From contig CBDCJO010000002.1 of NCBI GenBank assembly GCA_965217865.1, positions 2,944,001 to 3,008,000 on the forward strand: DNA of 64,000 nt, written 5' to 3'. A program made the position numbers and the translations under genes. A model generated the notes under the pieces. The model was not told where the DNA came from and ran no database searches. It saw only the letters and a program-made list of their open reading frames with translations. Positions 38,095 through 51,823 of the stretch are shown piece after piece; positions within the stretch are counted from its first letter, which is position 1; each line of letters starts with the position of its first letter. The DNA is from Candidatus Latescibacterota bacterium (GTDB lineage Bacteria; Latescibacterota; UBA2968; SICM01).

Positions 38095-38754
38095 TTATGT
38101 GGACGATTGTTGGCTCGGCGCAGCCAGAAGGCCCTTTTTTTGCTCCGCTTCGTCGGCAGCTATGATTGCCCGAACATTCAGGGCTTTTTTCATCATCAGG
38201 CTTATCGTCGCCTGATGGTTAAATCCGCAGGGGAACCTCAACCGGTCGGTCGAGTCGTCCACCCGTTCCATCCCCAACAGTTTGGCGAGACCTGCGGAGT
38301 AGGTTTTCACGCGTCTTTCCAGTCCCTCTGGTTGACCGTCTGCGCTCACGGTGTAGGTCCAATGCCCTTCACCATCCTGTTCGGGGTCTACCACGAGGTT
38401 CCGGCCCGTCTTTTTTTCGTAGACGGTCAAAGGTCCGGGTTCTGTAGGGGTCGCCGGATCGAGCATGACAACCTCGTTAAATACCCTCTTGATCGCTATT
38501 TCGTGCAATTCCCAGCAGGGAAACCGGACGACATGACCGGGCCCGGCAAATGGTTCCAAACCTCCTAAAGCCGTCAACAAGTCGGAGCAGTTTTTCAACC
38601 GATCGTCAGCACCCGGTGCCTTGCTGTAGGTATTGAGTGTGAACAGGTGGCCCTCCTCACTCTCCCGTACGTGAAGGGCGATGGAGATCTCCTGATAGTA
38701 TTTGTCCATCGAGATGAGGTCGATATATCGGCCCAGGTTCACGATCCGACTCAT
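38095..38754 (-). CDS. Hypothetical protein with internal duplication (two RFPCxxxH motifs)
   Basis: Clean 219-aa ORF with GGAGA RBS; RFPCWELH and RFPCGFNH. Confidence 0.75.
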   Translation of the reverse strand: MSRIVNLGRYIDLISMDKYYQEISIALHVRESEEGHLFTLNTYSKAPGADDRLKNCSDLLTALGGLEPFAGPGHVVRFPCWELHEIAIKRVFNEVVMLDPATPTEPGPLTVYEKKTGRNLVVDPEQDGEGHWTYTVSADGQPEGLERRVKTYSAGLAKLLGMERVDDSTDRLRFPCGFNHQATISLMMKKALNVRAIIAADEAEQKKGLLAAPSQQSST

Positions 38755-41446: not shown

Positions 41447-42749
41447 AACGCTCGAGGACGACTCGCTTGGGTCAAAAAGAGAAAAAGCCCGAATACGGGC
41501 TTTTGGACAGGGTAGCACCTAAACTTCCAGGGTAAAGCCGGGGCGAACGAGTGCCCCAAGGTTATCCTCGATAATAACGCTCATCGTTCGATCTGAAGAC
41601 CGTTCTATATGTCAACACACGAGACCCGGTCCCTGGGACGTTATCTCGTTTTGGAGACTTTTCCGCGTGAACCCCGGTCCATGAACGGTTTGGATACCGG
41701 TCCCCAGGCCTCCCCACACGACACTGCTGTTTTCCGGACTGTCGATTGTCAAAGGCTTTGACCGAATGGCCAGGTATGATGGCCGAATCTTCTCCCATTT
41801 GGCGGCCTGGGCCTCTCGGGAAGCCGAGGCTTTTTCTTTAAGAAGACTCAGCATAGAAATGATTCCCTCCCTTGTCTTGATTTCCCTCATGGAGAGGACT
41901 TCAAATATCTCTCTGGGTGAGAGTTCGTAGGCATCCTTGCCGCGGATATTGAAACCCTTTCCAGTCAGGTAATTTACGAGCGACTCGCGCTTCAAGTTCT
42001 GTGCAACTCGTTCGTCGTCGACTCCGAAGGCGTCGACGACATCTTCTTTGCTCCGATCATTGACCAGTTCATTGAGTGTTTCCCCTGATTCCCGCATCAC
42101 CTTCCAGGGTGACCACTAACTTCCTCCAGAAGCGGCGATTCGGTCGACTGTTTCCCGGAGTACGACCCTTGTTCGAGCGAGTCGTTGCTCCCTGGAGGAT
42201 GGGGCAGCGGCGTCCTGGCGGGCTCGCTCAAAATCCTCGAGTTCGGTTTCGCGGATGACGGTTTCGTCGAGAGACTCGGGCATGGGTTCGATTTCCATCT
42301 CGGGTTTTGCAGCTTCTGGTTCAACCGGCGGGGTTTCCATGGCCATATCCGGCTCCAGGATCTCCGGGGGTTCTGATGTCAGGAATTCAGGCATTGGAAA
42401 AACGGAGGTCAAATCACCGGTCCTGTTCAACTTCTCTTTTGCCCAGATCGCCCAGATACAGATGCCGACCAGGAAGAGGGCTAAAACGCCTAAAAGCATC
42501 CTCTTTTTCCTGGGCTTTCTCGGGATTAACCTTCCCTCTTCGGCCAATCTCTTTTGTGCCCCGCGGGCAAGGTCGGGGGATCTCCAGATGGGAGAAGATC
42601 CTTTTCGGGTTGGTTCACTGAGGATCTCCGCGGCGGTTGGATCGGATTCCACCCGGCTCCTTTCGGATCTCGTACCCGTCGCCCCGACTGCCCCGGCGGC
42701 GACCATGCTCGCGATTTCCGCCCTTTTTTCGTCCCCAAAGGATGGTTCT

Positions 42750-43215
42750 TCTTCGTCGTCTTCGAAGAGGTTTTCGATGTCTTCGGGTTCGTCCTCAGCG
42801 ACGGCGGCCAGGTCGTCATCCTGGTCGGGTTCTAATTTGTCAGATTCGTCGTCTTCGAAGAGGTTTTCGATGCCCTCCTCGGGTTCGGCCTCAGCGACGG
42901 CGGCCAGGTCGTCATCCTGATCGGGTTCTAATTTTTCGGATTCGTCGTCTTCGAAGAGGTTTTCGATGTCCTCCTCGGGTTCGGCCTCAGCGACGGCGGC
43001 CAGGTCGTCATCCTGATCGGGTTCTAATTTGTCAGATTCGTCGTCTTCGAAGAGGTTTTCGATGTCCTCCTCGGGTTCGGCCTCAGCGACAGCAGCGGCA
43101 AGGTCCCCTTCCTGGTCGGGTTCTAATTTGTCAGATTCGTCGTCCTCGAAGAGGTTTTCGATGTCCTCCTCGGGTTCGGCCTCAGCGACAGCAGCGGTCA
43201 GGTCCCCTTCCTGGT
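42750..43215 (-). repeat. ~5 tandem 96-bp coding repeats (AAVAEAEPEEDIENLFEDDESDKLEPDQDDDL)
   Basis: cggccaggtcgtcatcctg at 42901 and 42997 gives a period of 96. Confidence 0.95.
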
Positions 43216-44537
43216 CAGCATTCTCTTCAAAAGGAGCAGCCGTGTCCACGTCAGGTACAGCTGCCAACGTTGCAATGGGCTCTTCTCCGATCGATTCCGC
43301 GGGGGAAACATCAGGGGGTTGAGCCTCTCCCGCCAGGATTAGTTCCGCTTGACGGACTTTGAGGAGATTTTTAAACTTAATCGGGATCTGAAAATCCACG
43401 TCGATGACACTCATGGGCTGGACGAAATAATCGGAAGCCCCGAGGCGCATGGCCTTCTCGATATTTTCGGTGGAGGTGCTGTTCACCAGGATCGGAATCT
43501 GACTCAGCGATGCGTCGGAAGCCGCTTCTTCAATCAATTCGAAACCGTCCTGCGAAGCGATATCCAGGTTCAACAGGGTGATACCGATATCCCCCTCTCG
43601 GAGTTTATCGAGTGCCTCTTCGCCGTTCTTGGCATCAGTGAAAGCGTATTGTTCTGTTTCAAGGACCCCTTTGAAAAGAGCAAGGTTATCTTCGTTATCA
43701 TCGATGAAAAGGATTCGGGTTTCGGATCTCTTGAAGGTTCCCTGAATCAGGTGATTTCAGATCCCGATTTAGCTCACGGAAATCGTCTATGATGCGATCG
43801 TCCACCAGTTCCTCGACGGGTGTGCCGTCATCCTTCAGGCCTCCCTCAGGGATCGCGGGGGCATACGATTCAGGCTCCTTATCACTATCCAATCCGATTG
43901 TTGGGAGCAGGGCATCGACCGAATCCGCTACTTCCAATTCCTCGATGTCCTCTCCGGAAGCATCGGCTTCTTCCACCTGCTGCTCAGAATCAGGTTCCTG
44001 TTCGGGTGACTCCGATTCCGTAAGGATCGTACCCTCCTGATCTGGAGCCCCATCGTCCAGGACCACTTCGGTACCCTCCGGAAGGGTATCGAACTCTTTT
44101 GCCTCCTCGGATCCTAAGACGTCCCCCTCGATATCGTCCCCGGCTTCCGCCATGGGTTCAACCGGTGCATCGAGCGGTTCGTCCGGCTTCTCCCCTGTTT
44201 CCTCCTCCGCAATCAAGTCGGCCTCGGCTTCCTGGGTATCGACTTGAACGGAAACAGGATCGTCCGCTGTCGTCTCAATGACGGCTTCATCCCCGATTTC
44301 TTCTCCCTCTGGGGTAACATCAGGAACTTGAGCCTCCGAACCCACCTCAGCATCCGATTCCCCTTCTTTCTCCTCCTCCTCCAAGATCGGGTCAGACGCC
44401 TCTCCTTCCCCGGCCCCTTCAGTTTTTGGGGTTTCGGGGGGTGCCAACCCCGGGTCCCCGGACTCCATGAGGGAGATCATCTGGGAGAGTTCCTGGTCAT
44501 CTTCCGACTCTTCCTGGTTTTCTCCGTCTGTACCATC

Positions 44538-44769
44538 GGGAATTATATACTTGACAAAGGCTATTTGCTTTATCCAAAAATGTTGAGTTTTTTGCGAAAG
44601 TCTCGCAGAATGCCCCGTCCCTTGGCCGGAGATCGTCCGATTCGAGCGATTTCTTTACCTGATTTTTGATGTCCTGTTTCTATATTTGTCGGCATGGGGA
44701 CTGCCAACAGATTGTTTGAGTAGACAGAGCCTTCATCACTATCATGACTTTATCAAGTATATAATCACC
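44538..44769. mobile_element. 232-bp MITE copy 2 with 8-bp target-site duplication
   Basis: GTACCATC at 44530-44537 and 44770-44777; TIRs GGGAATTATATACTTGACAAAG / CTTTATCAAGTATATAATCACC. Confidence 0.95.
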
Positions 44770-45126
44770 GTACCATCCTCCTGGAAGGTAGCAAGAAAGG
44801 AGTCCAGATCCTGGTTTTCTTCATCGGGTTTGGACTGTCCGTCGACTGTTCCCTTCCCTTTTTCAGCTTCTTCCTGGCTCGATGTCACGTCGTCCCGATT
44901 ATTTTGACTAGGTTGCTCGGCCACGTCTGATCACCTCAATCCCGATTCTTCATAAGGGCATTAATCGCCTGATCCAAAATTAGGCAATCCCAGGTTATGG
45001 ATCGTAATCTCGACCGCAAACCCTAAAGCCCGATTTCGGAATGACTTACCTCACCGAAAGATATATCGGCGTTTTTTGATAAGAACTTGAGTAATGAGAT
45101 TTTAGACATCCCTCCTCAAAGGATTT

Positions 45127-46737
45127 TCAACCTGGGCGATCTAAATGATTATCCGGTGAGCTCGACCCCGTACCCCCGTCTTTTTTTGCGTTATGGTCAC
45201 GTCCCAGGAATGTATTTCCCCACGCGGAGGTCCCTCGGAGAGATCCGTCCCGGAAAACCGGGGGTCGGCGGAGCATCTTTTCTTCCTCTCCATAGGCCTT
45301 GAGTCGGTCATATGCAAGGGCCCATATGCACTCCTTTTCACCCACTTCACACGTTCCCTGTCGCGTTCCCCCGCATGGTCCGTTACGCTGGTTTTTCGCG
45401 CACTGGGATTCCGGGCAGAGGTAAGCGATATCGGGAAGTGAACAGTCCCCGCAATCCCGGCAGTCGAATGCTATGGCTTTTGCGGCATATTCGGCCGCGT
45501 GTGTGATGGCTTTTAAGCGTTTTCCTCCGTTTTCGATCTTTGTGAAGACACGTTTTCCGATCCGAAAGCCCAGCGAGTCTTTTTCGAATACGCGGTGGTG
45601 GAAAAACCGGTTGAACTTATATCCTTTCGGGATCTTAGATCGAGCGGCCTTCAGCGAGGTCTCCTTCTTGGATGCCAGATAGGTGCGATTGATCTGAGTC
45701 GAATTCAGGCCGGTCCGGTTGTCGGGTTCAAAATAGTAAAATTCCCCGGGCTGAGGGAAGGAAATATCCTTCGCAAAAATTCTCCAATCCTCCGGACCGA
45801 ACGATTCTTCGATCTCCATAATTTTCCGATAGTCTCTGAAAGCAAGGTGCCCTCCCAGATAGACCCCCCGATATCCGATGCCTCGTGCGATGGCGATCTG
45901 TTTTGCCGCGAATTCCAAGAAGAATCCCTTACCCTTATCCCGGGAGGCCCCCTGTTTTTCGACAAGTTCCATGAGTTTTGGGCTCACGATGCATCCGGGG
46001 ATCGCGCCCTGGTGGAAGAACCGGGCTGCGACCCGGCTCAGGACATAGACATTGGCGATGACCGGAACACTCATCCCCTTGAGCGCCATATATTGCAGGA
46101 GTTCATCCAATTTGCGGGAATCAAAGCCGATTTGGGTAATCACAAACGCGGCACCGCTGGCGATTTTTCGTTCGAGCTTAAAATACTGAGGCATTAATTC
46201 CCGTTCGTGCAGTTTAAACGGGGAAACCACGGTGCCGAGGAAAAAATTGGTCCGGTCGAGAAGCTCCACACTTCCCCGTTTGGGGCCTTCGACCCGCATG
46301 CCCCGGTTCATTTCACTGAGCATCTCGAGCAAGCCGACCGAATCGATGTCGAAAACCGGTGCAGAATCGCCCTGGTATCCCCCTATGGGGTAGTCGCCCG
46401 ACAGGGTGAGGATGTTGTTGAAACCGGCGCTGGCCAACGTCCACGCCCGGCTCTGCAAGGCGTTTCTGCTCCAATCTTTACAAGATAGATGAATGATGAT
46501 CTCCTGACCGCGGGAGATCAGATCCGTCCCCAGAGTGTCGGGGCTCAACATGGCGTTTCCGCCGGGGTTGTCCGTGATGCTGAGGGCGTGGATCCGGTCG
46601 TATTCGACGAGACGACGGGCCAATTCTAGGACCTTTTTCCCCCTTTTTTCCAGAATGATCCCCCGGGTGGTCACCAGTTCAACGCAAAACACGAAGGTGT
46701 CGGTCCGGGTCAAGTGCTCTTTAAAAGAAAGGTCCAT
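45127..46737 (-). CDS. metF: Methylenetetrahydrofolate reductase with fused C-terminal Cys-rich MetV-like domain
   Basis: ITDNPGG, HLSCKD, LSGDYP, KIASGAAFVITQ; CRDCGDC, CPESQCAKNQRNGPCGG, CEV, CIW. Confidence 0.9.
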   Translation of the reverse strand: MDLSFKEHLTRTDTFVFCVELVTTRGIILEKRGKKVLELARRLVEYDRIHALSITDNPGGNAMLSPDTLGTDLISRGQEIIIHLSCKDWSRNALQSRAWTLASAGFNNILTLSGDYPIGGYQGDSAPVFDIDSVGLLEMLSEMNRGMRVEGPKRGSVELLDRTNFFLGTVVSPFKLHERELMPQYFKLERKIASGAAFVITQIGFDSRKLDELLQYMALKGMSVPVIANVYVLSRVAARFFHQGAIPGCIVSPKLMELVEKQGASRDKGKGFFLEFAAKQIAIARGIGYRGVYLGGHLAFRDYRKIMEIEESFGPEDWRIFAKDISFPQPGEFYYFEPDNRTGLNSTQINRTYLASKKETSLKAARSKIPKGYKFNRFFHHRVFEKDSLGFRIGKRVFTKIENGGKRLKAITHAAEYAAKAIAFDCRDCGDCSLPDIAYLCPESQCAKNQRNGPCGGTRQGTCEVGEKECIWALAYDRLKAYGEEEKMLRRPPVFRDGSLRGTSAWGNTFLGRDHNAKKDGGTGSSSPDNHLDRPG

Positions 46738-46770
46738 CTGGATTCCCCAGGCAGGATAAACAGTATCAAA

Positions 46771-48384
46771 TCATTTGAACATCGGCTTGAACATGCATCC
46801 CTCGACAAACACGTCAAAAAAATCAGGCGTGGTCTCCAATTCCACGTGCTGAATTCGGCCGACCAGGCGTTCAACCCCCTCCCTCTTAACTTTCGACAAA
46901 AGCATCGCGGTAGCTCCCTCGACGGAGGTGTTGCCAACCTTTTCGACCTTTTCCTCAAGAAAGTTTGGGATAAAGCCGATCCGCATGGCGTTCCTCAAAT
47001 CTATGAAGTTTGCAAAACCCCCTGCCAGGTAGAGTTTATCGATCCCTTCAAGGCCGACGTCATAGTTCCTCATAACGATCCGTTGCCCGCAATAGTTAGC
47101 GGCCTTGGCTTGGGCGAGGTTGCTCACATCCTCTCTCGAAAAGGTAATTCTCCGCTCCGGGTCAACTACAAATTTGTCCATATCGTCCGGGAAGGCACCC
47201 AGTTCATTCATTTTATCGTTGTTTACAAGCTCGGCCAACAGGTCGATCAAACCCGACCCGCAGATGCCTTCAGGGGGTCGATCACCGATGGTCCGATAGC
47301 GGACACTGCCGTTGCTCAGGGATATCGACTGAATGGCCCCATCATATCCCGGCATGCCGAAGGTAATCAAGCCTCCTTCAAAGGCTGGTCCGGCGGGACA
47401 GGAGGCGGCCATCATATGGTCCGAATTTCCGATGACGACCTCAGTGTTAGTCCCGATGTCCACGAGCATGACGATGTCTTTCTCCCGATCCATTCCCACA
47501 GCAAGGAGATCAGCGGCAACATCCGCCCCAACGTGACATCCGATCAGGGGGCCGCTGTAGACATTCGCCTTCGGATGGATGCGGAGGCCCAGGGCTCGAG
47601 CTGTTGTGGTCAGGGTGGTAGAAGTCCTTTTTCCCTCGTCCATTTCGTGTTCAACGATCGACTTGTAGGGTTTCTCTCCGATCGTCTGCACGTCCAGGTT
47701 GAAGAAGATATCCCTCATTGTTGCATTTCCGACAACGACGGCTTCATAGATCTCACCACGAGGGATTCGAACTTTTCGACACATCTCCCGGATTTCGTAG
47801 TTCAGACCGCTGATGATCGCCTGATGTAACTCTCCCCTATAGATCCCGGAGTCGTAGGAGATGCGGTGCATGATATCGCTGCCACCAAAGCGCTGGGGAT
47901 TTTCGAAAGAGCTGGTGTAGAGATGGGTCCCGTTCTCCAGGTCCAAAAGGTTCATGACGACAGTCGTCGTCCCAACATCTATCGCTAGTCCAAAGATCCC
48001 GTCCCGGTAGTGGTCGATATCCCGTTCTGCACATATCACCCGATCGCCTTGCCTTTTGACATTGGGATCGAGTTCAATACCCCTCTTTGTCCCCGCGGAA
48101 AGGATTTGGGGATTGCGTCGAAGGACGGAAAAATGGATGTCGCAATCCGTCGAGGTTACTGTGGCCTGGCAGGCCAACCGATACGGCTGCTGGAGAAACC
48201 GCTCCGCTTCGCTCGGCGGGGAGATATTCTCCCCCCCAGATGTCACTTCGACGATGCATTCGTGACATTGTCCGGTCCGGCCGCACGAGGTGGGAACCTT
48301 TATCTGCAGGTCGTCCGCATAGTCAAAGAGGGTTTTTCCTGCAGTAAGTTCGGCCTTTTGGTTTCCGTGAGAAATCGTCGCCAT
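46771..48384 (-). CDS. ASKHA-type reductive activator of corrinoid proteins (RACo/AcsV) with N-terminal 2Fe-2S domain
   Basis: SCGRTGQCHEC...RLACQ; AIDVGTTT, NPQRFGGSDIMHRI, VDIGTNTE, PAGPAFEG, GICGSG, LAGGF. Confidence 0.93.
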   Translation of the reverse strand: MATISHGNQKAELTAGKTLFDYADDLQIKVPTSCGRTGQCHECIVEVTSGGENISPPSEAERFLQQPYRLACQATVTSTDCDIHFSVLRRNPQILSAGTKRGIELDPNVKRQGDRVICAERDIDHYRDGIFGLAIDVGTTTVVMNLLDLENGTHLYTSSFENPQRFGGSDIMHRISYDSGIYRGELHQAIISGLNYEIREMCRKVRIPRGEIYEAVVVGNATMRDIFFNLDVQTIGEKPYKSIVEHEMDEGKRTSTTLTTTARALGLRIHPKANVYSGPLIGCHVGADVAADLLAVGMDREKDIVMLVDIGTNTEVVIGNSDHMMAASCPAGPAFEGGLITFGMPGYDGAIQSISLSNGSVRYRTIGDRPPEGICGSGLIDLLAELVNNDKMNELGAFPDDMDKFVVDPERRITFSREDVSNLAQAKAANYCGQRIVMRNYDVGLEGIDKLYLAGGFANFIDLRNAMRIGFIPNFLEEKVEKVGNTSVEGATAMLLSKVKREGVERLVGRIQHVELETTPDFFDVFVEGCMFKPMFK

Positions 48385-48520
48385 CGTTTCCTGGTGCGTT
48401 TCCAGCCTTTCTCTAAAGCGAAAAAAAGAAGGGCACCTCTCAAACACCGGGGAGACCCGGATATTTCAGGATCTGGTGCCCTGGATCTGTGCCTTTTTTC
48501 ACGAAAAGCGAATGAGAGAA

Positions 48521-48817
48521 CTAAACGGTGGGAGCACTCGAGGGTCGGTCGCGATCGGAGGGATCGATTTGCGGGGAATCGACCTCCCAGGCACTCCGGT
48601 AGTTCAGGTTATCGTCGCTGCTACAGACCTTCAGTTCGTCCGGTTCAGCGGGTGGACGCTGATACCGACATTTGAAGTGGGCGGTGCAACGGTCCTCGGC
48701 ATTTTTATAAGGACAGCGAAGAAGGGAGTCCTCGTCTGCTTGTGTGACGATCTCGGCCAGGATCTCGTTAAGCATTTCCAGGCTTCGGTTGTGTCGAGCC
48801 TTATCTTGTCCCGCCAT
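48521..48817 (-). CDS. Small 4-Cys hypothetical protein
   Basis: Starts 4 nt after the corrinoid gene stop; RCPYKNAEDRCTAHFKCRYQ...VC. Confidence 0.7.
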   Translation of the reverse strand: MAGQDKARHNRSLEMLNEILAEIVTQADEDSLLRCPYKNAEDRCTAHFKCRYQRPPAEPDELKVCSSDDNLNYRSAWEVDSPQIDPSDRDRPSSAPTV

Positions 48818-48821
48818 CTTT

Positions 48822-49574
48822 TTACGCCTCCGCGGGGACGTCCCTCTCTTCCATGAACGCTTTGGCTTTGGCTACGCACTCCAGGGCGTCCTTCCCGTAA
48901 GCGTCGGCGCCCATCTCGTCAGCAAACTCCTGCGTCACCGGCGCGCCGCCGACCATGATTTTTACGTCGTCCCGGAGTTCCTCGTCGATGAAGGCCTGAA
49001 TGGTTTTTCCCATGTTCGGCATTGTGGTGGTCAGGAGCGCGGACATTCCCATGATCGGGGCTCCGGTGTCCTCGATGGCCGCGATGAACTCATCGGGCTT
49101 GGTATCGACGCCGAGATCGATCACTTCGAAACCGGCTCCGCGCAGCATCATGATGCACAGGTTTTTCCCGATATCGTGAAGATCACCCTTTACCGTGCCC
49201 ATGACGACCTTTCCCAGGGGTTCGATTCCGGACGCGGACAGGATTGGATCGATGTGGGCCATGCCGGCCTTCATCGCCCGGGCGGCAACAAGCACCTCGG
49301 GGACGAAGATGATGTTATCCCGAAACTTCACCCCTACGATGCCCATGCCGGAGATCAGACCCTCATCCAGCACATCCTGGGCATCCACCCCCTCGTCGAG
49401 GGCCTGCTTGGTCAACCGGTTCACGTCGTCTTGTTTCCCCTTGATCAGACTATAGGCGATGTCCTGCATCAGTGGAGAGACCCCGCTGAACAATTCGGCG
49501 AACTTTTCTTTCTCGTCCGGCCTGTCGACGTATTTATCGATCTCCTGCTGAATACCTTCGTTCGTAATCGGCAT
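48822..49574 (-). CDS. Stand-alone corrinoid (B12-binding) protein, cap plus Rossmann domain
   Basis: GLISGM..VG..F...IFVPEVL; [13 protein letters not shown] (DxHxxG); SALLTTTM; VGGAP. Confidence 0.95.
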
Positions 49575-49601
49575 CGTTCACTCCATAATAGCGTTCAGGG
49601 C

Positions 49602-50480
49602 TTATCCACGCAGCACGTTTGCGATCTCGCGGATGTGGGAAGGGGTGGTTCCGCAGCAACCCCCAACGATCGTGGCGCCGGCATCGACGAGGGTCCGGAA
49701 GTGCGGGGCCATCCATTCAGGTGTTTCCGGGTAGATGATCTGTCCTTTCCGGATGACCGGAATTCCGGCGTTGGCGTGGATCAGGATGGGGGCGTCAGCT
49801 ATCTTACGCATCTCCCGGACTAACTCTATCTGATAGAGGATGCCGTTGCCACAGTTCGAGCCCACCACATCCGCGCCTGCTTCGAGCAGACCCTGGACGG
49901 CGGCCTCCGGGGTCACACCCATCATTGTGAAGTTTCCCCGGGGACCTTTGTCAAAGGTCATGGTCGCCATGGCCACGCAATCGGTATGCTCTTTCGTTGC
50001 CCTGACAACCAGGCAAGCTTCCTCGAGGGATGTCATCGTCTCGGCACAGATGGCGTCGGCACCCCCTTCTCCCAGAGAAGTCACCTGCCTGACGAATCCC
50101 CGATACATTTCCTCTTCGCTTACCTCGCCGAGCGGTTCCAAAAACTCACCCGTTGGTCCGACGGAGCCGATGACGTAGTGTTCGGAGGGGGCCGCATCCC
50201 GGACGTGCCGTGCGGCGAGTCGGTTCAAATCTTCAAGCCGGGCTTCGTGGTTGTACTTTTTGAGCATGAACGGGTTGCCGCCGAAGGAGTTGGTCTCCAT
50301 CATATCGGCCCCGGCAGCGAAATATTCGGCGGCCATATTCTGAATGGTTTCGGGATGGGAGAGGTTCCACTCCTCGGGGCACCCCCCCGGCTCCAGGCCG
50401 CTGACCTGAAGGTAGGTTCCGGTCGCGCCATCCGAGATCAGGATTTCGCCCGTATTTATCCGGTCAAGAAGAGATGCCAT
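49602..50480 (-). CDS. Stand-alone homocysteine S-methyltransferase domain
   Basis: [39 protein letters not shown] (Zn ligands). Confidence 0.93.
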
Positions 50481-50489
50481 GCCAGTCTT

Positions 50490-51527
50490 TCAATTGGCGT
50501 GCTCTGCGTGCCAGTCTTTGACCGCCTTCGGTATCTCGACCAGGTTTTCCAGACGGGTTCTAAGGGGGATGGCGCATTCAGGGGCCACCAACTCCACGCC
50601 TGCATCGAGACATCGATCCACCTCTTTCCTCACATGTTCTGGATTTCGGGCGTAGAGGGTCTCCGGGTTATTCACGTTGCCCACGAGGGAGATTTTACCA
50701 TCGGTGATCTCGTGCGCCTCCCGAGGATCGTTCTTCGAGTCGAAGTGGAAGCATTCCATTCCCGTGCTGGCGATATAGCCCATCCGGTCGAGGGTGTTTC
50801 CACAGATGTGGAGAATAATCGGACATTTGATCCTATCGTGGAATTCCACGTGCAGGTCCTGGAGATAATCCCTGTAGTACTCGCCGCTCACCAGATCGCC
50901 GGTGGCGTGGTCCGGGAGGGTAAGGGCATCGGCCCCCGCCTCGATCTGTGCGTTCCCGAAGGCGATCGTCGATTCCTTCATCCGGTCCAGGCAGAGCTTG
51001 GTCCGGTCGGGATCGTCGTAGGACATCAGGAGAAAAGGCTCCACGCCGAAGCAATGATAGCCGAGGGACCAGGGCCCCATGGTCTTTCCGATGATGGCAA
51101 CCTGGTCCCCGTAATCGCGTTTGAGGATGCGGATGGCCTCGAGGACGCACTTTGTGTCGTTATGGGTCAGGAGATCCTTGGGGATCTTGATATCGTCGGG
51201 TTCTTTCCAAATCGGGTTGTTCATCCGGACCGTGGGCCAGTTGTCCTTTTCCTCCCACTGGATTTCACAGCCCAGGGCGGAGGACTCCTGGATGATCGTG
51301 AAGACGGGCATGATGCTGTCGAAGCCGAGTTCAGTATATCCCGTGGCCGCCAGACGGGCCATCTTTTCCGGGTCCCGGTTTGCATCGGGGAACGGGGCTT
51401 CAACCATGTCCATCAGTTCAACAGTGGCCACCGAGGTTGGATTTGAGCAGGGCGTTCTGTCCACCGGTTGCCGGTTGAGAGCGGCCAATACACGATCGCG
51501 AGGTTTCATGGTCTCAGTAAAGGGCAT
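50490..51527 (-). CDS. MtaA/CmuA-family (URO-D fold) methylcobamide methyltransferase
   Basis: MKPRDRVLAAL, GPWSL, AQIEAGAD, ILHICG (HxC), VGNVNN, APECAIP. Confidence 0.92.
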   Translation of the reverse strand: MPFTETMKPRDRVLAALNRQPVDRTPCSNPTSVATVELMDMVEAPFPDANRDPEKMARLAATGYTELGFDSIMPVFTIIQESSALGCEIQWEEKDNWPTVRMNNPIWKEPDDIKIPKDLLTHNDTKCVLEAIRILKRDYGDQVAIIGKTMGPWSLGYHCFGVEPFLLMSYDDPDRTKLCLDRMKESTIAFGNAQIEAGADALTLPDHATGDLVSGEYYRDYLQDLHVEFHDRIKCPIILHICGNTLDRMGYIASTGMECFHFDSKNDPREAHEITDGKISLVGNVNNPETLYARNPEHVRKEVDRCLDAGVELVAPECAIPLRTRLENLVEIPKAVKDWHAEHAN

Positions 51528-51823
51528 CCCATCATCTCCGGTTAAAAAGGGTCCGCAGGTCCCTTCGGGAAGGGTTATCTAGAGGTAAGGAAGAAGATAA
51601 CAATATTTTAACCAGATTTCAAGGCACATGTCGTATGAAAAAAAGGCCGATTTGATGATATTTGATCTTCGTGATAAGTTTTGGTATATTCAATTGGATG
51701 GAGTAAAAACGTCTAAATCGAATGAATTAAACCGGATTCCATCTCCTGAACGCCTCCTTTCTCGATTTAAAAGGGTCCGGAATTATCATTCAGTGCCCAC
51801 TTCAAGCTCCAATTCAGGAAAAT

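Follow-up and report, generated by a model that had tools for sequence, protein, structure and literature searches.

A cassette of six minus-strand genes was analysed in a stretch of 64,000 nt, here called the window, from the genome of Candidatus Latescibacterota bacterium (assembly GCA_965217865.1, contig CBDCJO010000002.1, positions 2,944,001 to 3,008,000). The window genome, G000 (contigs C1 and C2), is 96% complete with 9.3% contamination. The six co-oriented open reading frames (ORFs) occupy 45127–51527 with gaps of 9, 27, 4, 136 and 33 nt, and encode a methyltransferase (MT) of the URO-D fold, a homocysteine methyltransferase (Hcy-MT) domain, a free corrinoid protein, a 4-Cys protein, a RACo-type activase and a MetF-MetV fusion (Table 1); all six were present where the first-pass annotation, made from the letters of the window, had placed them, and all six of its names were correct. 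A scan of GTDB genomes returned at least 533 related stretches, and the best 80 loci (79 genomes) were analysed, with genes counted within 10-kb flanks, some of them cut by contig ends. The synteny check showed that the set recurs over these 80 loci and is thus not a chance grouping. The system resembles the MtgCDE hub but has another input arm, namely the URO-D enzyme, which is the new and unexplained part. Its tightest partner, protein X, was absent from the gene list of the first-pass annotation.

Table 1. Features of the cassette and its surroundings, in window coordinates
Feature	Position	Strand	Length	Characteristics
MtaA-like (URO-D fold) corrinoid methyltransferase	50490..51527	-	345 aa	PF01208 (E 9e-68); TIGR01463; NF004889 above cut-off
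Stand-alone Hcy-MT domain (MtgE/MetH N-terminal type)	49602..50480	-	292 aa	PF02574 (E 4e-64); C210, C275, C276
Free corrinoid protein (cap + B12 domain), MtgC-like hub	48822..49574	-	250 aa	PF02607 + PF02310; DLHDIG at 131
4-Cys protein (C35, C44, C50, C65)	48521..48817	-	98 aa	Four Cys invariant in 16/16 aligned sequences
RACo/RamA-type ATP-dependent corrinoid reductive activase	46771..48384	-		PF14574, PF17651, PF00111, Fer2
MetF-MetV fusion (methylene-tetrahydrofolate reductase)	45127..46737	-	536 aa	PF02219 + PF12225
Protein X, two internal repeats each with FPCxxxH	38095..38754	-	219 aa	Partner of the URO-D enzyme by gene linkage
Candidate promoter of sigma-70 type, upstream of the URO-D gene	51594..51622	-		TTGAAA-17-TATCTT with extended TG; consensus match alone

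The URO-D protein scored 271.2 bits against TIGR01463 (MtaA/CmuA family; curated cut-off 235.4), and fell below the cut-offs of the MtaA and MtbA equivalogs NF040654 and NF041608 (247 vs 400 and 206 vs 600 bits, respectively). The closest solved relative by sequence was found to be MtaA (4ay7, E 8e-53, about 31–33% identity), and the best fold match of its model (mean predicted local distance difference test score, pLDDT, of 73) was also MtaA (4ay8, TM 0.83). Residues H240, C242 and C318, invariant in 37/37 aligned sequences, make up the predicted Zn site and align with the MtaA motif, the matching MtaA residues being the zinc ligands of that enzyme. In this superfamily, His-Cys-Cys is the mark of S- or Se-methyltransferases and provides the zinc ligands of the family (PMC10418091). 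Among the best 80 loci, spread over eight phyla, the enzyme is 72–89% identical. Additionally, four database proteins fuse it to this corrinoid protein (71–73% and 64–75% identical, respectively), and in genome G091 both lie within one open frame; these fusions support a direct partnership of the two proteins. A quick tree that was built without MtaA, MtsA, MtpA, MecE and CdmB, and in which the clade is therefore not placeable among characterised enzymes, presented CmuA and a second URO-D protein on saturated branches and a mixture of phylum labels that is no proof of transfer. Elsewhere, G000 encodes one more corrinoid protein (C2:1470929-1473283; L003:9930-12283), with 64% identity to that of the cassette, beside a distant URO-D-family protein with the motif HxD...N in place of His-Cys-Cys. 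No activase gene lies close to this pair, so that it may be a further input arm that depends on the shared RACo. Genomes G005 and G009, of the same class and lacking both X and selD, carry a more distant URO-D protein (43–45%), and their corrinoid and RACo proteins are of other clades, which looks like a sister system.

A homologue of X was found upstream of the URO-D gene in 78/80 loci, at a distance of at most 300 nt in 76/78; the two exceptions were one genome of the window's family, with X elsewhere, and one locus cut at a contig end. Distant homologues (25–33% identity) had the URO-D gene following them in 16/17 metagenome loci, and a Hcy-MT of the window's type (51–61%) directly preceded X in 10 of these 17, which are redundant. 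X was present in 108/115 genomes of the same class, in distant form in 2/2 genomes of one other family, and in 0/22 further genomes of the phylum. Its AlphaFold2 model is of high confidence (pLDDT 91.6) and its internal repeat has an E value of 3e-6. No match was obtained in Pfam, NCBIfam or PDB sequences, and none of use in a plasmid tblastn or the Atlas, which does not make its fold new; Foldseek returned nothing at E ≤ 0.001, and the best VIA-align match (Z 7.1, root-mean-square deviation 3.1, 90 aligned residues) covered the N-terminal half only, at background level. In the window, X lies 6.4 kb from the cassette, a distance that appears to be the result of rearrangement, and the gene beside X in this family is one that we take to be GmhB-like. 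The gene linkage of X points to a probable role as a subunit that binds substrate or acts as a scaffold. A divergent GntR/FadR regulator, whose ligand could name the substrate, is encoded upstream of X in about 40/80 loci (L009–L085), and has no close orthologue in G000 (best 32%). In G116 and G117 (L108), a distant X homologue stands with no URO-D gene beside it, and a cassette-type RACo (54%) has been kept, the match to which spans one in-frame TAA.

The Hcy-MT had T. maritima MetH as its best PDB match (1q7m, E 3.7e-43), and its cysteines, together with N237, were invariant in 16/16 aligned sequences. Two further PF02574 genes were located in G000 (C2:2651655-2652734 and C2:4902326-4903286, the latter split over two frames), with 22–32% identity to that of the cassette, and G001, of the same family, contained 18 PF02574 matches, an unusual expansion of homocysteine-methyltransferase-like proteins in one genome. 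The corrinoid gene was counted in 71/80 loci, and an orthologue was found elsewhere in the genome for 9/9 of the remaining genomes. The 4-Cys protein had no match in Pfam or NCBIfam. Its domain was present in 70/80 loci, accompanied RACo at 63/63 RACo loci and was fused to RACo in 27, and, to judge from these arrangements, the protein is likely a metal-binding domain detached from the N-terminus of the activase; the idea that it is a separate unknown was rejected because of the fusions (27/80 loci). RACo probably starts at ATG 48384, which gives 537 aa, the length also of its orthologues in G001 and G002. It was present in 63/80 loci and elsewhere in 14/14 other genomes tested, a test that left out three loci cut by contig ends. 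The MetF-MetV fusion (MetF-V), the sole PF02219 match in G000, was found in 40/80 loci, one of these being a 30% paralogue. The signal for promoter-type sites was weak (7 found vs 3.7 expected from shuffles).

The first-pass annotation had described the cassette as having no pterin-binding MT, and had suggested that the URO-D enzyme might stand in for a missing methyl-tetrahydrofolate (CH3-THF) module. The former holds for this stretch alone: G000 possesses a stand-alone MeTr of 342 aa on the other contig (C1:615641-616670), with methyl-THF:corrinoid methyltransferases as its best PDB matches and a PF13769-like small gene after it. It is one of only two PF00809 genes of the genome, the other being dihydropteroate synthase. 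In 2/2 genomes of the same family, the operon runs RACo, MetF-V, MeTr (75–76% identical) and the small gene, and MeTr also occurs in 42/80 loci, so the proposed replacement fails for G000. The end of C1 overlaps the start of C2 over 6.3 kb at 99.97%, which puts MeTr and the cassette on one chromosome; the possibility that C1 is a contaminant was rejected on this overlap and a tetranucleotide correlation of 0.987. An assembly error as the reason for the absence of MeTr beside metF-V was likewise rejected. Contigs X1 (44742–47890) and X6 (44770–46588) join metF-V to the next gene without MeTr, and, on C1, also connect MeTr with the NTP-transferase gene upstream of it; since contigs of two studies span both new junctions, the split of MeTr in this species is real, although X1 may be the source sample itself. 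Stand-alone MetE catalytic-domain (PF01717) ORFs were observed at C1:613247-614200 (L006:5248-6201) and in about eight other places of G000, some of them split by frameshifts; the one near MeTr appears to lack the usual HxC stretch.

The genome check that the first-pass annotation had proposed thus turned up a MeTr gene and no full-length metH: neither the MetH reactivation domain (PF02965) nor, by blastp, a full-length MetH was found in G000, which presented 0 matches to the MttB family (PF06253) and only one methylene-THF reductase. Separate corrinoid, pterin-binding and homocysteine-binding proteins occur in one genome, together with RACo and with neither a MetH S-adenosylmethionine domain nor a match of MetH length. 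Since no full MetH was found, MetF-V, MeTr, the corrinoid protein, the Hcy-MT and RACo are likely the B12-dependent methionine synthase of G000, on the MtgCDE/RamA plan. Of the two findings that the annotation had named as jointly fatal to its proposal, a pterin MT elsewhere in the genome was found, and a failure of the URO-D gene to be co-conserved was not, the gene being strongly co-conserved.

The hosts of the best 80 loci belong to Latescibacterota, Poribacteria, Acidobacteriota, Gemmatimonadota, Verrucomicrobiota, Actinomycetota, Chloroflexota and Alphaproteobacteria; the closest named relative among them is a Latescibacterota metagenome-assembled genome (MAG), at 89%, and 53/60 relatives of G000 gave a long match of at least 71%. 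PF13769, MeTr, GntR and Hcy-MT genes were counted in 46, 42, 42 and 35 of the 80 loci, respectively, with the Hcy-MT of a distant clade in 30 of the 35 and nearer the window's type in 5. Gene loss was surveyed genome-wide in 50 of the 79 locus genomes, which were picked to be rich in MeTr-less loci and are MAGs, kin among them not being independent; PF02574 was surveyed in 52 genomes. A MeTr orthologue was found in 23/50. MetH was present in 25 of the 27 genomes without MeTr (24 full length and 1 partial; 8 of the 27 have another stand-alone pterin MT) and in 8 of the 23 with MeTr (7 full length and 1 partial), so that MeTr is retained chiefly in genomes lacking MetH, the pattern to be expected if it serves methionine synthesis. 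No stand-alone pterin MT was present in 19/50 genomes. A stand-alone PF02574 protein was found in all 19 of these, and in 49/52 genomes overall. In 15 of the 19, 7 of these 15 being single-chromosome assemblies, the Hcy-MT lies beside the corrinoid and RACo genes; the evident partners of the corrinoid protein there are two, each by family a thiol-activating methyltransferase. This pattern makes a path from a methyl-thioether (or selenoether) through the corrinoid to methionine the likeliest role. The folate-free route from the URO-D enzyme over the corrinoid to homocysteine that the first-pass annotation had put forward is thereby supported at the level of the family.

The literature search gave no account of this cassette or of protein X, subscription papers being mostly outside its reach; the supplements of PMC10418091 and PMC12478193 could list member proteins. 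The system is not MtgBCDE, a type 1 mlp cluster, CmuA or MtaA proper. The plan of a split three-part methionine synthase has been shown genetically in P. inhibens (PMC5764234) and R. pomeroyi (PMC12478193). As in the Mtg system (MtgB-C-D-E with RamA and MetF2) of Ruegeria pomeroyi, Phaeobacter inhibens and Sinorhizobium meliloti, a full MetH is missing and the genes are partly scattered over the genome. The S. meliloti locus shares MtgC (48% identity), MtgD (32%), Bmt/MtgE (40%), RamA (28%), MetF and MetV, as well as a small PF13769 gene (54% for the family representative). G000, however, has no MttB-family MtgB (PF06253, 0 matches; no tblastn match of S. meliloti MtgB) and no DUF1638 (tblastn); the MtaA-like enzyme, X and the 4-Cys activase domain are in place instead, MetF and MetV are fused, and genomes with MetH can do without the pterin MT. 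The mtg cluster is carried by CP090106.1 (L118), a chromosome-sized record of 3.7 Mb labelled plasmid pSymB that may be mislabelled.

With the soluble coenzyme M and methylthiol methyltransferases of Methanosarcina, MtaA, MtbA, MtsA/MtsB and MtpA/MtpC (10.1101/548461), the arm shares the URO-D fold, the His-x-Cys...Cys motif, a partner corrinoid protein and occasional MT-corrinoid fusions. Its identity to MtaA is about 31–33%; MtsA and MtpA are likened to it by description. The cassette enzyme differs in being bacterial, in falling under the MtaA and MtbA cut-offs and in being paired with a Hcy-MT and X instead of enzymes of the MtaB/MtmB type. Type 1 mlp clusters (PMC10418091) similarly combine an MtaA-like His-Cys-Cys protein, a corrinoid protein and an activase of the Ram/RACE type with a proposed methyl-sulfur or methyl-selenium role feeding methionine. 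They have two or three MtaA-like genes and occur mainly in anaerobic Firmicutes, whereas the cassette has one, with a second URO-D-like gene in only L028 and L077 of the 80 loci, has a Hcy-MT and X, and is hosted by Latescibacterota, Poribacteria, Acidobacteriota and others. The absence of a THF methylase within 20 kb that is given for type 1 mlp applies to G000, but not to 2/2 genomes of the same family or to 42/80 loci. A URO-D-superfamily MT, a corrinoid protein, an activase and a THF methyltransferase are also common to the Cmu, Cdm (PMC13222342) and mec (10.1101/2021.08.30.458270) systems. CmuA of M. extorquens CM4, however, is 24% (MT; E 4e-6) and 36% (corrinoid) identical to what are separate genes here, the mec gene list consulted does not include a Hcy-MT, and CdmB is described as zinc-free; MecE and CdmB were set apart by such descriptions.

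The proposal, which we regard as having about an even chance of being right, is that a split methionine synthase is joined by an MtaA-like arm which, with X, would strip methyl from a methyl-thioether, possibly a selenoether, onto the corrinoid and then onto homocysteine. RACo and the 4-Cys domain, by their family, would reduce Co(II) to Co(I) with ATP. MetF-V would make CH3-THF, MeTr would load the cobalt and the Hcy-MT would yield methionine, by analogy with the published MtgCDE system. The His-Cys-Cys Zn enzyme would take R-S-CH3 (dimethylsulfide (DMS), methanethiol or methylmercaptopropionate (MMPA)) and methylate Co(I). This step alone would be uphill, as MtpA demethylates MMPA with a dG0' of about +20 kJ/mol (10.1101/548461), and would be pulled by the Hcy-MT, the net reaction R-S-CH3 + Hcy = R-SH + Met being near-thermoneutral; such a near-neutral coupled exchange may explain why two enzymes of this kind share one corrinoid. 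With MeTr and MetF-V present, surplus methyl could pass to the folate pool, and MtgD is reported to work in both directions (PMC12478193). X would serve as the substrate-binding or scaffolding subunit that its linkage suggests.

Several observations weigh against this proposal. The Hcy-MTs of the loci form two clades, about 28% identical, and not one orthologous group, and in the window's own family X is not adjacent to the URO-D gene. Genomes G068, G075 and G110 (3/52), all with MetH and MeTr, have no stand-alone Hcy-MT, and G067 and G104, two of the 19 genomes without a stand-alone pterin MT, have neither MetH nor MeTr in their assemblies. The nominal p of 2e-5 for the gene-loss pattern overstates its significance, because a MeTr-poor set was chosen and the genomes are MAGs and related. 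When the 80 loci were clustered, neither transporters nor sulfur-pathway genes emerged as widely conserved neighbours of the cassette. Furthermore, Bmt of P. inhibens makes methionine straight from dimethylsulfoniopropionate or betaine with no cobalamin (PMC12366255), and the Hcy-MT here may therefore not need the corrinoid. Finally, MtaA itself runs toward thiol methylation, the downhill direction.

This last point leads to the reverse reading, in which the URO-D enzyme is a terminal MT like MtaA and serves to detoxify or to synthesise by methylating sulfide, selenide or a small thiol. The methyl would come from CH3-THF through MeTr or from methionine through a backward Hcy-MT. This reading seems unlikely. 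The closest solved relative operates in this way, transfer from methyl-corrinoid to thiol is described as downhill (10.1101/548461), and MetF-V (40/80) and MeTr (42/80) are each present in roughly half of the loci; nevertheless, 19/50 genomes keep the URO-D enzyme without a stand-alone pterin MT, and would have to be supplied by the folate domain of MetH or by a reversed Hcy-MT, both hypothetical. A selenium role, with the arm demethylating methylselenol or dimethylselenide so that selenide is freed for SelD and the methyl enters methionine, is judged quite improbable. In its favor, selD was found in 46/50 locus genomes and 12/13 same-class carriers (58/63 together) vs 0/4 same-class genomes without X, and in 5/8 carriers vs 4/143 non-carriers of Opitutales; selA is present in G000, and selenide is methylated more quickly than sulfide by a relative among the MtaA-like proteins (PMC10418091). 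The signal is nevertheless confounded by habitat and kinship; it is flat in Bryobacterales (17/19 carriers vs 81/92 non-carriers), selD is absent in 3/8 Opitutales carriers and 5/63 of the carriers surveyed, and 3/3 non-carriers outside the class of G000 have it.

It is more doubtful still that X is the true substrate-activating MT1 or a protein-bound thiol carrier with the URO-D enzyme downstream, in which case the donor would not necessarily be sulfur. The linkage of X to the URO-D gene (78/80) exceeds that of the corrinoid gene (71/80) and persists when the rest relocates, and in 42 sequences the conservation of C80, H84, C176 and H180 is at least 90%. The fold searches, however, gave no known methyltransferase fold and matches at background level only, X diverges faster (25–40%) than the URO-D enzyme (64–77%), and 2/7 distant homologues are without both motif cysteines. 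Catabolism of methyl halides as in cmuA/cmuB/metF or cdmBCA, with CH3X passing its methyl over the corrinoid to THF for oxidation through MetF, was the weakest of the donor options raised by the first-pass annotation and is very unlikely. TIGR01463 membership is shared with CmuA and MecE (10.1101/2021.08.30.458270), fusions in the CmuA domain order exist, and the layout is that of MT1, corrinoid protein, activase, MT2 and MetF; against this, the match to the CmuA MT domain is far poorer (see above) than that to MtaA (E 8e-53), the predicted Zn ligands are invariant here whereas CdmB needs none (PMC13222342), MeTr is dispensable, and a cassette present in 53/60 relatives looks like housekeeping. 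The least probable of all is that the URO-D enzyme itself has the activity of a methylcorrinoid:homocysteine methyltransferase and forms the core of a new methionine synthase; it is highly conserved and belongs to the superfamily of the MetE catalytic domains (weak fold matches), but a PF02574 homocysteine methyltransferase domain is already available in 52/52 genomes, often within the cassette.

Next to the cassette, a repeat resembling a miniature inverted-repeat transposable element (232–240 bp, its terminal inverted repeats imperfect and each junction marked by TACCATC) lies at 44530–44770, with 11 other near-identical and 2 diverged copies in G000. It is missing at this site from the run contigs X3, X6 and X10, so that the insertion is polymorphic between strains. 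It breaks the minus-strand gene at 41612–44920, which is in pieces here and a single ORF of 783 aa in G002; the frame of this gene also changes near 43720–43749, where the X3, X6 and X10 contigs are one base shorter, and about five acidic tandem repeats of some 93–96 nt each lie at 42752–43216.

Returning to the transfer from a methyl-thioether through the corrinoid to homocysteine, its corrinoid hub is of a published kind (2018, 2025), and the input arm is uncharacterised, unusually conserved (72–89% across phyla) and near-universal in this bacterial class. Extended to hundreds of uncultured bacteria of at least eight phyla, living as sponge symbionts, in the sea, in groundwater and in soil, the tentative claim, to which we give somewhat less than an even chance, is that the methanogen-type zinc enzyme and X, a new protein family, move the methyl group of DMS, methanethiol, MMPA or a methyl-selenide via the free corrinoid onto homocysteine, free of folate and with release of the thiol or selenol, a two-thiol transmethylation that was absent from the papers searched. 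The small, soluble nature of the system makes direct testing possible by the standard cobalt UV-visible assay. If true, the claim would assign a function to proteins whose family is described in no library and would mean that volatile methyl-sulfur or methyl-selenium compounds have a bacterial sink not recognised so far, and a thioether or selenoether substrate would mean a B12-dependent route in the marine sulfur or selenium cycling of abundant uncultured groups.

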